Shown piece after piece: positions 12,142 through 17,660 of a DNA stretch of 64,000 nt. Numbering within the stretch: the first letter of the stretch is position 1; every line of letters starts with the position of its first letter. A program made the position numbers and the translations under genes. Source of the DNA: an uncultured candidate division Zixibacteria bacterium (GTDB lineage: Bacteria; Zixibacteria; MSB-5A5; GN15; FEB-12); assembly GCA_963735035.1 (NCBI GenBank), contig CAVTJJ010000004.1:224001-288000 (forward strand). Direction: 5' to 3'. The notes under the pieces are model-generated. The model saw nothing but the letters and a program-made list of their open reading frames with translations, did no database searches and had not been told where the DNA came from.

Positions 12142-12214
12142 GCGCCATTAGCTCAGTTGGTAGAGCAGCTGACTCTTAATCAGCGGGTCCGGGGTTCGAG
12201 TCCCTGATGGCGTA
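12142..12214 (+). tRNA. tRNA-Lys (anticodon CTT)
   Basis: Acceptor GCGCCAT/ATGGCGT, anticodon arm GCTGA-CTCTTAA-TCAGC, T loop TTCGAGT. No encoded CCA. Confidence 0.95.
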
Positions 12215-12326
12215 TTTTTTTATTGGTAGCGATCGCGTTAGCGTGGGCCCCATCAGATTTTCAAATCATAGTACGTGGGAGAGACGCCTGGAGGGGTGTG
12301 GTGCTGTTGTGTGAGCAATTGTCGCG

Positions 12327-13130
12327 CTAATTGCTATTCAATCCAAAAGCCCTGCTCCCCAGCTTTTTCTTGGTGAGAATCTCTTGGCTTATTACTTCGA
12401 CTTTCGTAGCGCTCGGTTCGAGGACTCGAAGAATCGAAAACTGAAACTGCTTGTTGCGAGCAGGTCTCTTCATAAGGAGCTCTTCAATGAGCGCATTCCC
12501 GCCTGACGGAGACTTTACGTAGCTTCGCCATCTTGCCCAGATTCCTCCGTTGCCATAAGCACTACCCACATATTGCTTGCCAGAGCGTTGATCCAATAGG
12601 ACGTAAACACCGCTAACTGACGATAGCATCCGTTGCCACTCCCGATTAGAATCTGGGTTTCTAACCATCGTGGCAAGCTGATCATAGGAGAGAACAAAGT
12701 TGTAATAACCGGGGAAGTCCATCACGTAGTTGGGCGGAAGCAGTTCAACGATGTCTTTGTTGCCTTGTCGATGTAGCCATTGGGCCCAAGACCTAGTTCC
12801 TTCACCCCACTGAACAATTAGGCGATGCTGCAAGTCTTCAAAGCCGGGAAGTTCCCTTGTTCTGTAACGGAACCCCTTCTTCTTCTTCTTGCTCTTTGAA
12901 GTAATCTCCCATACCCCTACAAACTTGGCATATCTATTTCGCTCTGCGATGAAACTTATCACGTACCTAGCATCCCCAAATACATCCCACGACTGGCTAT
13001 TTTGATACCGACTGAATCGATTAGTGCTCCGTAGCTCCCATAAATCCTGCTGCGATGTCTTGTGGCGAAGAACTTTCACCCAATGATCATTACGAAAGCG
13101 CTCAAACTGTTGTAGGTCTGTAAGTTTCAT
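12327..13130 (-). CDS. GIY-YIG nuclease family protein
   Basis: SGVYVLLD...KQYVGSAYG..GIWARW..Y and a downstream conserved Glu helix; ends GLNSN. Confidence 0.88.
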   Translation of the reverse strand: MKLTDLQQFERFRNDHWVKVLRHKTSQQDLWELRSTNRFSRYQNSQSWDVFGDARYVISFIAERNRYAKFVGVWEITSKSKKKKKGFRYRTRELPGFEDLQHRLIVQWGEGTRSWAQWLHRQGNKDIVELLPPNYVMDFPGYYNFVLSYDQLATMVRNPDSNREWQRMLSSVSGVYVLLDQRSGKQYVGSAYGNGGIWARWRSYVKSPSGGNALIEELLMKRPARNKQFQFSILRVLEPSATKVEVISQEILTKKKLGSRAFGLNSN

Positions 13131-13238
13131 GAGTTCTCGATTTGCTTTTCTTTGTATCCACTATAGACCGCATAGATAATGGTGTCAATCAGTTTGTAGT
13201 TGGTCAGCTTAGATTAGGCGGGTGAGGATAGCTGACAG

Positions 13239-14570
13239 CTAAGATCGCGACGACTTTTCTGGGGCCTTCAGTATCGGTGAAACGTCAGAGAGAACAAGGT
13301 TGAGCCCTTCTTTCATCCGCTTGAAGAGTTCACTCGCCAATTCTCCCTTGTCATCTAGTTTACGAGCAACGTCTATCGGAATTCTGTAATGAATTCCGAT
13401 AGAAGGACAAATGTTGAATTTAGTGTAGCTGGATGTTTCAATCCTGGACCCAATATCGGACTCATTCTTTTCAGTAATATTGACTAGTCCTTCAGCCTCA
13501 AGTTTCCTAATGAGTTCAAGCACTTCTCTGCGATCATGTTGTCTAATCGACGCGGAGTTACTCCGCCAAAAGTCGTAATACTCTTTGATTCGACTTTCGG
13601 GACAGTCCAATCGTAACAACACTCTTTGAGCAAAAGCTATGTGGAAGTTGGGCTGAATTACCCAGTCAGCCACAAGACTTTTCTTGACATGCTCATAACT
13701 TAGATTTCGCTTGTAAAAAGCCTTGGATTGGGATTGAGTGTCGCCGTAATACAGGCTGACAGTGAGATGACCAGAATTCTCCGAGATGTTCTCATCTATT
13801 ACACCGATTGACCAGATTTCGGGTAATCCGAAATTCATGCAAATGCCCCACCCCGTGTGATATCTCACCAAACTCTTAGGGCCGGCTACAAGGGATAGCA
13901 GATTCCTTATTCTCCTCCTAATCAGCGAATCATCATTGCCGCATTGCGACAAGTGGTCGAATGGGTTCAGGTTGGAAAATCGCTCGCTTACAAGTGACAA
14001 GAAGTCATCAATAATCAATCCCTCAGCTCCGCCTACAGACTCCATACTTCGAATCTGATTCAAGGACCTAATGATATTCTTCCATTCCACTACTGAAGGA
14101 ACCTCTATTAGAATTGAATCCTCTGGTAAGCTCTTCACACTTGGGTTTAACTGTTCTCTCCATACATGACCATGATTGGGCTTGTTCTCAATTATGATTG
14201 ATAGCTCGCCGCCGAAATTGATGACTCCATCATAGATGGCACTTCGGTTAGATGGCTTGATCGTGATATCCTCGCCGATCCATTCGTCAGTCAATAGAAC
14301 CGACAAGACAGCACCAACTTGTTCATCGCAAATTGTGGAAGTCTGGGTTTCAAAGTCTACGTCAGAAACCGGGAGGACGCTGGAAGAAGGCAACTTGACT
14401 TGGATGCCTAGTTTATCTGCTCTGTCTAAGCAGGATACCCGAATCGCGTCATAAAATGAGAGAAGCGCGATAGGACTAAACCTCAACAAGACCAAGAAGG
14501 CTCTTGTAAGATGGTCCTCATGTCCCTGGGGCTTAGATTCATACGGTTCAAAGTAGTTCATGTGGGACAT
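13239..14570 (-). CDS. Hypothetical protein with a PD-(D/E)XK nuclease-like N-terminal domain
   Basis: HEDHLT helix, then YDGVI...IIIENK...EQL pattern. AT-rich codon use. Confidence 0.65.
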   Translation of the reverse strand: MSHMNYFEPYESKPQGHEDHLTRAFLVLLRFSPIALLSFYDAIRVSCLDRADKLGIQVKLPSSSVLPVSDVDFETQTSTICDEQVGAVLSVLLTDEWIGEDITIKPSNRSAIYDGVINFGGELSIIIENKPNHGHVWREQLNPSVKSLPEDSILIEVPSVVEWKNIIRSLNQIRSMESVGGAEGLIIDDFLSLVSERFSNLNPFDHLSQCGNDDSLIRRRIRNLLSLVAGPKSLVRYHTGWGICMNFGLPEIWSIGVIDENISENSGHLTVSLYYGDTQSQSKAFYKRNLSYEHVKKSLVADWVIQPNFHIAFAQRVLLRLDCPESRIKEYYDFWRSNSASIRQHDRREVLELIRKLEAEGLVNITEKNESDIGSRIETSSYTKFNICPSIGIHYRIPIDVARKLDDKGELASELFKRMKEGLNLVLSDVSPILKAPEKSSRS

Positions 14571-17394: not shown

Positions 17395-17409
17395 CAACGC
17401 TGGTCGTCT

Positions 17410-17547
17410 GATTTGCCTGAGGCAATCTCAAATCTTAGTGGGCGGCAGACCTCCTGGTCTGCCCCTGGCACGGGGCACACGGGGACGTGTGCCGCCCACG
17501 GAGAAGAGATCGCCACGGCTCCGATCAAGTCGTTGCCTCGCGATGAC
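17410..17547. repeat. REP/BIME-like cluster
   Basis: GCAATCTC...GGGCGGCAGAC..GTCTGCCCC...GAGATCGCCACG..CTCGCGATGAC, units shared with 3586, 30069 and 49307. Confidence 0.65.
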
Positions 17548-17580
17548 GGGCTCGGGTCTATTTCAACACTCCCTCTGTGA

Positions 17581-17660
17581 GGGTTTCTCTTGATTCGTTT
17601 AATCAGCGGGACCGGGGTTCGACAGGCTGAGCCTTTGCTCGTCCCTGTCGGCGTATTTTT
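17581..17660 (+). repeat. tRNA-Lys 3'-half-derived repeat, copy 2 (att-like, 18-nt T-loop insertion)
   Basis: TTAATCAGCGGGaCCGGGGTTCGA[CAGGCTGAGCCTTTGCTC]GTCCCTGtcGGCGTATTTTT. Confidence 0.85.

Follow-up and report, generated by a model that had tools for sequence, protein, structure and literature searches.

How do small blocks of genes that encode no integrase come to be stacked behind a transfer RNA (tRNA) gene, and what is the hairpin that interrupts the tRNA fragments between them? We address this question for a stretch of 64,000 nucleotides (nt) from an uncultured candidate division Zixibacteria bacterium (GenBank assembly GCA_963735035.1, contig CAVTJJ010000004.1, positions 224,001 to 288,000; hereafter the window, whose coordinates are used throughout unless a contig or locus is named), in which the gene for tRNA-Lys(CTT) is followed by two cassettes (12216-17660), each closed by a displaced copy of the 3' half of this tRNA. 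Islands at tRNA genes are one of the principal ways in which bacteria acquire genes for defence and for their niche, and the way in which tiny integrase-less cargo blocks are captured and kept is poorly understood. By comparing the genome that holds the window (G000; 3.61 Mb in 6 contigs, 96.9% complete, the window lying within contig C4) with its relatives, we find that the array is real and recurs, small cassettes without an integrase having accreted at a tRNA gene, and that the insert in its tRNA halves is a family-wide module, consisting of a 13-nt hairpin plus 4-5 nt in the T loop beside TTCGA, and no private mutation. As to its origin, the chances seem to us about even that the locus is a small island of two integrase-less cassettes, accreted at tRNA-Lys(CTT) through a recombinase acting in trans and through cassette-borne pseudo-tRNA sites that exchange 3' of the hairpin.

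Two interrupted tRNA halves delimit the cassettes

The intact tRNA-Lys(CTT) gene (12141-12215, forward strand; ARAGORN, Rfam 69.2 bits) anchors the array on its attL side. Its 3' half, from the AATCAG of the anticodon arm to the T run past the acceptor end, is repeated on the same strand in junction unit 1 (14741-14799; 64.7 bits and E 1.7e-14 with R1, the covariance model described below) and in junction unit 2, the last unit of the array (17601-17658; 76.1 bits, E 2.4e-17). The locus thereby shows two of the features by which Islander recognises an island, an intact target tRNA kept at one end and a displaced 3' fragment present as a direct repeat at the far end. Unit 2 is identical to AATCAGCGGGTCCGGGGTTCGA at 21 of 22 positions, with 90% identity in its 20-nt 3' block GTCCCTGATGGCGTATTTTT, and unit 1 reaches 82% and 80% over the corresponding two blocks. 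When the 64-kb window was scanned with the covariance model, filters off, only these two units and the tRNA were returned, and only two tRNAs of the window pass in Rfam, the second being tRNA-Lys(TTT) (12039-12112, forward strand; ARAGORN, Rfam 73 bits), which lies upstream of the target tRNA and outside the array; neither unit was matched by Rfam, even at E up to 10. The folding energies of the units are unremarkable on either strand (z -0.5 to -2.4).

Both units carry an insert of 18 nt at the same T-loop position, 3' of TTCG(A/T), namely CAGGCTGAGCCTGGGCGC in unit 1 (14764-14781, forward strand) and CAGGCTGAGCCTTTGCTC in unit 2 (17623-17640, forward strand). The first 12 of the 18 nt are identical, and this 12-mer, found twice in the window, is expected 0.00 times (100 shuffles). 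The dyad that it contains is best read with a 3-nt loop, as CAGGC-TGA-GCCTG, which is perfect in unit 1, where the tail GGCGC follows, and pairs at 4 of 5 positions in unit 2 (CAGGC-TGA-GCCTT, with the tail TGCTC); the latter tail is also found in the tRNA-Asn unit of G001, a relative. We considered that the hairpin might copy the T stem of another tRNA (GCCTG/CAGGC) and rejected this, such a stem being absent among the 49 tRNAs that ARAGORN predicts in G000. These predictions include a tRNA with anticodon CTA (labelled Pyl; C2:21792-21864) and a tRNA-SeC (C6:279330-279426).

Outside the tRNA match, a common flank begins exactly 20 nt 5' of it in each unit (GGGTTTCCCCTGA at 14721 and GGGTTTCTCTTGA at 17581); it reads GGGTTTC(C/T)C(C/T)TGA and leads into a 9-nt pseudo-anticodon loop where a 7-nt anticodon loop is expected. 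In both units this flank is preceded by a hairpin of 5 bp with a 3-nt loop, the sequences of which differ (CACCC-TAC-GGGTG at 14709-14721, CCCTC-TGT-GAGGG at 17571-17583), and the left arms as a whole (14709-14740 and 17571-17600, forward strand) are homologous to each other. A preliminary description of the locus, made from the DNA letters alone, had reported the two repeats with their 18-nt T-loop inserts, the identical first 12 nt with a dyad, and the shared flank 20 nt upstream; ARAGORN, Rfam and model R1 place the repeats and inserts exactly as described, to the base, the flank stands as given, and the dyad is refined to the 3-nt-loop form above.

The same kind of unit closes different cargo in relatives

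We surveyed 108 genomes of the family by BLAST and then with R1, which was built from seven units; the unit counts for the family are those among the matches listed, beyond which there are 115 weaker ones. Hairpin-bearing units are found in at least 9 of the 108 genomes (G000, G001, G008, G031, G061, G063, G116, G123 and G126), and in G026, a tenth genome, the corresponding T-loop site holds a hairpin of another kind, GATCC-N13-GGATC. One more hairpin-bearing unit lies on L248, a metagenome contig (L-numbers otherwise denote loci in relatives), which is the new contig among the two matches obtained by scanning metagenome contigs with GYCTGTTCGARTCCCTGATGGCG, the other being apparently the contig of G061. 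The search was also extended to 151 genomes of the order, 52 of them from three other families; in those families the matches listed are all plain 40-nt tRNA halves, with no hairpin unit among them (52 further matches lie beyond those listed).

Arrays of this kind are anchored at tRNA-Lys(CTT) or tRNA-Asn(GTT) and comprise 1-7 cassettes, each of 0.1-2.8 kb and with 0-3 genes; tRNA-Lys(CTT) is the anchor also in G031, G126, G123, G116, G026, G002 and L248. The longest array, that of G031, has seven cassettes of 0.6-2.7 kb behind tRNA-Lys(CTT), which end, from first to last, in a plain copy, four hairpin units of the CAGGC type, a unit whose insert is different and has 14 nt, and a decayed unit; the cassettes encode YdhR (ydhR), RDD, a trypsin-like protease, SDR, Zn-ADH, GNAT and unassigned proteins, and no recombinase. 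G126, G123, G116, G026 and G002 each have other cargo. Indeed, the cargo is different in every genome examined, including methyltransferases, GNAT, DUF4440, a GIY-YIG protein, cupin, ASST and an AAA ATPase, again with no recombinase among it.

G002 belongs to the same genus as G000. Its upstream synteny (purA, the FKBP genes and tRNA-Lys(TTT)) is kept, and the same site holds a different cargo of 1.7 kb, closed by a unit without hairpin. The host flank 3' of unit 2 (17659-17760, forward strand) is orthologous, over ~100 nt, to the flank 3' of this G002 unit (blastn 72% over 79 nt); 17660 is therefore the true distal edge of the island, and the gene content at this site varies within the genus. 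Repeated units with variable cargo, which the preliminary description had named as support for an array, are thus what the relatives show: the same kind of unit with other genes, and in G002 other cargo before the same host flank. None of the outcomes that would have contradicted that description was obtained: no complete unit was found away from a tRNA locus, the gene content varies, and the insert is conserved beyond the two copies of the window. A scan of the genome contigs with CAGGCTNAGCCTGTTCGA returned at least 120 stretches; none of the 80 loci examined is tRNA-like, nor is the single viral match, and most lie in coding sequence.

The two anchors are connected by their cargo and by their sequence. 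The tRNA-Lys array of G031 and the tRNA-Asn locus of G063 have a trypsin-like cargo gene in common (84% identity over 161 nt), and the anticodon arms of tRNA-Lys(CTT) and tRNA-Asn(GTT) differ in a single loop base, so that one integrase could plausibly serve both loci. In G063, a Lys-type hairpin unit is located 143 nt past tRNA-Asn, behind a spacer that is conserved with G001. This spacer of ~145 nt past tRNA-Asn(GTT) is conserved in two genera (L030 7734-7905, L069 5812-6012) and is followed by a Lys-like tRNA half, which has the hairpin in G063 and is truncated in G001.

Full-length copies of the tRNA also occur. In G116 (L065 1356-1446), ARAGORN predicts a 91-nt 'tRNA-Lys(CTT)' that is a full-length copy 4.6 kb past the intact gene, in which the hairpin module replaces the 5' strand of the T stem. 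On L248 (6940-7030), a full-length pseudo-tRNA-Lys lies only ~100 nt past the working gene as an 'empty' cassette, devoid of genes; over its first two thirds the pseudo-tRNA is strongly shifted from G/C to A/T, and its last third and ~50 nt of flank equal the working copy. A before/after comparison of G026 and L248, which have an O-methyltransferase in common (58% over 253 aa), was abandoned, as their flanks align over no more than ~10 nt and no insertion boundary is readable. At two further loci in relatives (L032 and L067), several neighbouring genes encode type IX secretion sorting domains (Por_Secre_tail), which suggests a place for the family in the FCB group of bacteria.

No recombinase in the window, an integrase at the same tRNA in relatives

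The window encodes no recombinase, as judged by the absence of PF00589 and PF00239 matches from its part of contig C4. In the whole genome of G000, three proteins match PF00589, scoring as XerD-like, XerC-like and one further Xer-like, and integron-integrase models score far under their cut-offs on these Xer-like proteins; there are, in addition, one large serine recombinase, beside tRNA-Met, and six Y1_Tnp (RAYT-like) matches. No dedicated integrase was found in the whole genome, and the array at tRNA-Lys(CTT) is, as had been proposed, one without a recombinase of its own.

Such an integrase is found in relatives. In G013, a tyrosine integrase of 241 aa is encoded directly past tRNA-Lys(CTT), and homologues of it (E < 1e-50) are present in 22 of the 108 family genomes, where they lie directly 3' of tRNA-Lys(CTT) in G106 and G131 and, by coordinates, in G128; others adjoin tRNA-Thr, tRNA-Arg (twice) and tRNA-His. 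The best match of the G013 integrase in G000 is at the level of Xer proteins (E 4.3e-27).

The serine recombinase of G000 (C3:2950-4676, 568 aa, CcrB/XisF-like) abuts or overlaps the tRNA-Met gene, and three displaced tRNA-Met 3' ends are found at C2:114731-143013, with an Xer-like recombinase at C2:151k. Serine recombinase and displaced ends together look like a second island system, of the T-loop type.

A paired hairpin in the T loop

Altogether, 17 units of the CAGGC type were read, 15 of which were aligned, with G031_6887 (which has a second insertion) and L248 omitted. Their constant core is the 13-nt hairpin immediately 5' of TTCGA(A/G)TCC, that is, of the T loop, the 3' strand of the T stem, the 3' strand of the acceptor and the T run. 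The sequence 5' of the hairpin is variable (TTCGA, TTCG, ATT, TGTAT, CAAAGT or GAGAAC) and often stands in place of the 5' strand of the T stem. In the genus of the window, g1, the module consists of the hairpin and TGCTC after TTCRA, in a half of tRNA-Lys (G000) as well as in one of tRNA-Asn (G001).

In the alignment of these 15 units, 97.3% of the hairpin cells are paired, and two pairs of the hairpin are changed on both sides (GC to AU), with the variants CAGAC/GTCTG and CAAGC/GCTTG. The covariation score was reached by none of 500 shuffles, and slid controls were all lower, with pairing of 26-48%, although both kinds of control overstate significance for related sequences. The alignment thus indicates that pairing is maintained through compensatory changes, which is no proof of function.

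The units also resemble each other in details that they do not owe to the tRNA. Both units of G123 carry the derived TTCGAACCG, an 8-nt loop TTCGCAAT is common to G031_6103 and G063_5955, which belong to different genera and lie beside different tRNAs, the leader CAAAG is common to G061 and G031_6887, and the two units of G000 share their non-tRNA left arm. Such shared derived features would be impossible in a working tRNA, and, going by them, the units appear to have been copied as units. A near-identical hairpin variant, CAGAC-TAA-GTCTG, is found in different genera (G008 and G126).

Often, the hairpin marks a sharp break in identity to the tRNA. In L248, 10 of 17 positions on its 5' side and 18 of 18 on its 3' side agree with the tRNA, with ~50 nt of flank repeated too, and both G116 and G126_7695 match at 14 of 17 and 18 of 18; the unit of G002, which has no hairpin, is degenerate in its left part and free of mismatches from the T stem onwards. 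Williams, in 2002, is said to have distinguished anticodon-loop and T-loop sublocations for integration in tRNA genes, and in the displaced copies considered here identity starts at the anticodon loop where the copies are plain, and at the T arm in G002 and in the tRNA-Met, tRNA-Leu and tRNA-Asn islands of G000.

Dispersed copies of the palindrome

Searched exactly, the 12-mer occurs 8 times in the 3.6 Mb of G000, against 2 occurrences of a reversed control. The 8 matches are the two units, five copies of GGCTTCGA-CAGGCTCAGCCTG-AC in spacers rich in repetitive extragenic palindromic (REP) elements, and one inside an open reading frame. Since two of the five copies are at contig ends and may be one locus, they represent four distinct sites (C3:569799; C3:983959, the same as C4:44; C4:210974; C6:585492), and the motif is also present in relatives, at G001 C28:10490 and G123 C161:4415. 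Dispersed motif and T-loop module share TTCGA beside the palindrome or, on the other strand, TCGAAGCC after it; the dispersed copies are unlike the T-loop copies in having C at the centre, other tails, and the palindrome within a larger stem-loop.

G000 has, furthermore, five other displaced tRNA ends (three of tRNA-Met, one of tRNA-Leu and one of tRNA-Asn), which start at the T stem or T loop and have no hairpin. As the T arm of tRNA-Met equals that of tRNA-Lys(CTT) over 20 nt, the hairpin accompanies full halves of the anticodon-loop type and does not occur in just any T loop.

How the array may have formed

In the reading that we favour, the two cassettes would have been added successively at tRNA-Lys(CTT) by site-specific recombination, as is known for decayed integrative elements that accrete in tandem at tRNA genes, every cassette being closed by a pseudo-tRNA attachment (att) site that begins at the anticodon loop and extends as far as the 3' end of the tRNA. 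The units, hairpin included, would travel with their cassettes as attC sites do, and much of the exchange with the tRNA gene would take place 3' of the hairpin, between the T loop and the 3' end, leaving the working tRNA intact and the hairpin-bearing left part at the distal junction. The recombinase would be supplied in trans and could be of the kind that is encoded directly past tRNA-Lys(CTT) in relatives and is absent from G000. A more far-reaching proposal sees in the hairpin-bearing pseudo-tRNA units the counterpart of attC sites, belonging to a cassette system anchored at tRNA genes, in which small circles with one unit each would recombine, by means of a recombinase in trans, at the stretch from the T loop to the 3' end of tRNA-Lys(CTT) or tRNA-Asn(GTT), and the hairpin would mark the cassette site as distinct from the working tRNA and keep the latter intact; this we regard as rather unlikely. 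The cassette-array interpretation of the preliminary description, which had invoked a trans-acting or lost recombinase, holds in part: the array, its recurrence and its variable cargo stand, and cassettes moving as units are a conditional element of the reading. Of the two roles that it had proposed for the insert, the marking of spent att sites and the footprint of a REP-like unit at TTCGA, either may apply, and a related motif of TTCGA plus palindrome is dispersed in REP-rich spacers.

Several observations weigh against exchange at cassette-borne sites 3' of the hairpin. The difference in identity between the two sides of the hairpin is modest over 13 units (189 of 221 positions, or 85.5%, on the 5' side and 213 of 234, or 91.0%, on the 3' side), and G031_10546 and G123_6326 have the opposite asymmetry, so that this measure, which was tried as a decisive test of the crossover position, gave a mixed result. 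The flanks of the hairpin are identical to the tRNA at 17 of 17 and 18 of 18 positions in the tRNA-Asn unit of G001 and at 16 of 17 and 16 of 18 in unit 2 of G000; being near-perfect, they look like those of a clean 18-nt insertion in a displaced half, not like a cassette-borne arm. The copies nearest to the tRNA in G031 (5443) and G123 (5576) are 100% identical to it, lack the hairpin and start at the anticodon loop, and crossover in the anticodon loop therefore also operates in these arrays. GCCTG beside TTCGA forms no inverted repeat with the 3' strand of the T stem of the kind expected of a tyrosine-recombinase core, and TTCGA plus palindrome is present outside tRNA contexts too. No circular form, empty site or strain polymorphism was seen, no sequencing run that contains this DNA being listed. 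Finally, no recombinase is linked to the hairpin, and for the islands of G013, G106 and G131, which do encode an integrase, the 12-20 kb covered showed no distal repeat or att site.

The hairpin itself could be a feature of the att site, could have come in as a REP-like insertion, or could be an old scar that gene conversion has spread; the latter two each make a serious rival account of the array. The tRNA halves may be ordinary displaced fragments from integration at the anticodon loop, into which the hairpin came as a REP-like mobile or template-switch mini-module that inserts beside TTCGA in the exposed T loop of non-essential copies, perhaps moved by the REP-associated Y1 transposases of the genome. 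The clean insertions with near-perfect flanks in G001 and in unit 2 of G000 speak for this, as do the occurrence in genus g1 of the hairpin with TGCTC at the same T-loop position of two tRNA types, the six Y1_Tnp matches and REP-rich spacers of G000, the presence of GGCTTCGA-CAGGCTCAGCCTG-AC at four further distinct sites there and also in G001 and G123, the youngest copies being still without hairpin, and the other sequences that occupy the same T-loop place in G026 and in unit 5 of G031. We nevertheless judge it unlikely, since the dispersed copies differ from the module in centre base, tails and larger stem-loop, the motif is rare (8 exact matches in 3.6 Mb), the five T-loop-type ends of G000 have remained without it despite the equal T arms of tRNA-Met and tRNA-Lys(CTT), and the units of one genome share derived changes outside the hairpin. 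To our knowledge, moreover, there is no transposition system for modules of 17-18 nt.

The resemblance of units within a genome (G123 and G000), and also of G061 with G031, would also follow from one old accidental insertion in an ancestral displaced half, which was vertically inherited, was spread among neighbouring units by gene conversion and has no role beyond being a heterology that limits conversion or deletion with the tRNA. A heterology in the middle of the repeat would account for the sharp change of identity at the hairpin; the confinement of the hairpin to one family of the order, among the matches listed, and its presence in the T loop of the oldest units, next to the host flank, in G126 and G063 fit as well. 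A neutral scar would, however, not require the compensatory changes that keep the stem paired, the hairpin is also found in a half of tRNA-Asn that agrees perfectly with Asn sequence to either side of it, the orthologous last units of G000 and G002 differ in having and lacking the insert, and CAGAC-TAA-GTCTG is near-identical in the different genera of G008 and G126; we take such a scar to be about as unlikely as the mobile mini-module. Still further from our favoured account is a function at the RNA level, with the units acting on the transcripts of the cargo as terminators, as signals for processing or as 3' ends that resemble a tRNA. Every unit does end in a T run, the changed acceptor strand of unit 2 (TGTCGG) can pair with CGACAGG to form a long hairpin just 5' of that run, and the left-arm hairpin of unit 2 has a terminator-like score. 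As the genes of cassette 1 are on the opposite strand, however, unit 1 cannot serve their transcripts, the T-loop hairpin is ~24 nt before the T run and therefore too far from it for an intrinsic terminator, and the units have neither an Rfam match nor unusual folding energies, all of which makes a role as RNA elements very improbable.

Cargo of the two cassettes and their surroundings

Cassette 1 (12216-14708) has a G+C content of 0.43-0.49, compared with ~0.555 for the genome, and contains two genes on the reverse strand. The first (12327-13130) encodes a protein of 267 aa of the UzuA family (Uzume), a candidate anti-phage gene that is matched over its full length (PADLOC PDLC03973, E 2.1e-83) and has homologues in 5 of the 108 family genomes; its C-terminal part gives a weak GIY-YIG signal (TIGR01453, E 8e-4, under the cut-off of the model). 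The second (13239-14579) encodes a protein of 446 aa of no known family, with no Pfam, NCBIfam or PADLOC match, for which a protein atlas gives weak leads of the PD-(D/E)xK type (PDDEXK_4 0.89, HindVP 0.87); going by these, a nuclease role is a weak lead. The 'two nuclease genes' of the preliminary description are therefore to be rephrased as a full-length UzuA gene with a weak GIY-YIG signal and a gene with weak PD-(D/E)xK-type leads. A common first cargo in G000 and G126 was also considered, as both have a GIY-YIG-type signal, yet the proteins are unrelated.

The single gene of cassette 2 (14917-17394, forward strand) encodes a protein of 825 aa with an N-terminal hydrophobic, signal-like segment and, again, of no known family; Pfam has no match for any of the three cargo proteins. 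Just past unit 1 and 5' of this gene lies a promoter-like site, TTGACA-16-TATATT (14820-14847, forward strand), that matches the consensus at 11 of 12 positions and fits the promoter of its own that had been ascribed to the gene. Between the gene and unit 2 there is a REP-like double hairpin of the GGGCGGCAGAC...GTCTGCCCC type (17433-17504). REP-like hairpins of this family, GGGCGGCAGAC-N5-GTCTGCCCC and partners, are found in spacers here, in L030 (9150-9185) and at the start of contig C4, and in both G000 and G001 one copy is just upstream of a junction unit. Upstream of the array, purA is followed by three tandem genes for FKBP-type peptidyl-prolyl isomerases (10329-11960) and by tRNA-Lys(TTT).

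Comparison with known systems

The array itself is akin to known forms of accretion, with cis-mobilizable elements in tandem and tycheposon islands coming nearest, and the T-loop hairpin module is the part for which we found no description: in the literature searched, no conserved module of this kind is described in displaced tRNA halves. What the searches did bring up were papers on archaeal integrases, which appear unrelated, on the T-loop attP of Ms6 and on Islander, and a survey of Klebsiella. The earlier statement that the arrangement is unlike described systems was thus too strong for the array, because integrase-less accreted islands at tRNA genes are known, and is upheld, within that literature, for the hairpin. 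If the hairpin is part of a recombination site, the arrays would represent a simple cassette system beside tRNA genes, with one site, one hairpin and an integrase in trans; should it instead be a mobile mini-hairpin with T loops as its target, this would be new in itself. Either way, software that maps islands by looking for uninterrupted tRNA fragments would probably miss or misplace such junctions.

Integron cassette arrays, including the clusters of attC sites lacking integron integrases (CALINs), are stacks of cassettes of 1-3 genes, with a structured end site on each cassette and variable cargo. The arrays described here share with them the stacking of small cassettes, the structured end sites and the variability of the cargo, and are unlike integrons in having no intI or attI, the place upstream being taken by purA, the three FKBP genes and tRNA-Lys(TTT), in using tRNA halves and not attC as sites, and in carrying genes in both orientations, with cassette 2 having its own promoter-like site.

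The regenerated intact tRNA and the displaced 3' fragment as direct repeat are shared with the tRNA and transfer-messenger RNA islands mapped by Islander, as these are outlined in PMC4383910, from which the present island differs in that no integrase lies inside it and that the displaced fragment is interrupted by a conserved hairpin. The ssrA islands of Dehalococcoides also stand in tandem behind a small RNA gene and are bounded by repeats of its 3' end, with no hairpin insert reported in the excerpted text of the source (PMC3146451). In the tycheposon islands of Prochlorococcus, as summarised in parts of the preprint, successive integrations seeded at tRNA genes push older ones inward and leave scattered partial tRNAs between adaptive and defence cargo (bioRxiv 10.1101/2020.12.28.424599). 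Seeding at a tRNA, successive integration, partial tRNAs and cargo of this nature recur here; the hallmark genes of tycheposons, an element-borne recombinase and the replication module, are not found inside or near the arrays, and none is among the array genes examined. The terms 'hairpin' and 'T-loop' are absent from the preprint text as retrieved by term search (bioRxiv 10.1101/2020.12.28.424599).

A further parallel is offered by cis-mobilizable elements (CIMEs) and their tandem accretion, in which, in the account excerpted from PMC5704250 (on Pavlovic 2004 and Bellanger 2011), elements that have no genes for integration retain their att sites, stand in tandem behind the target gene and rely on a related integrase that comes in. 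The cassettes described here are unlike CIMEs in being very small (0.1-2.8 kb, 0-3 genes), in forming arrays of up to seven units and in having a T-loop hairpin at their junctions, and their mobilisation is putative. What they have in common with CIMEs, on that same account, is an array that keeps its att sites without genes for integration or transfer, with integrase-bearing elements residing at the same tRNA in relatives.

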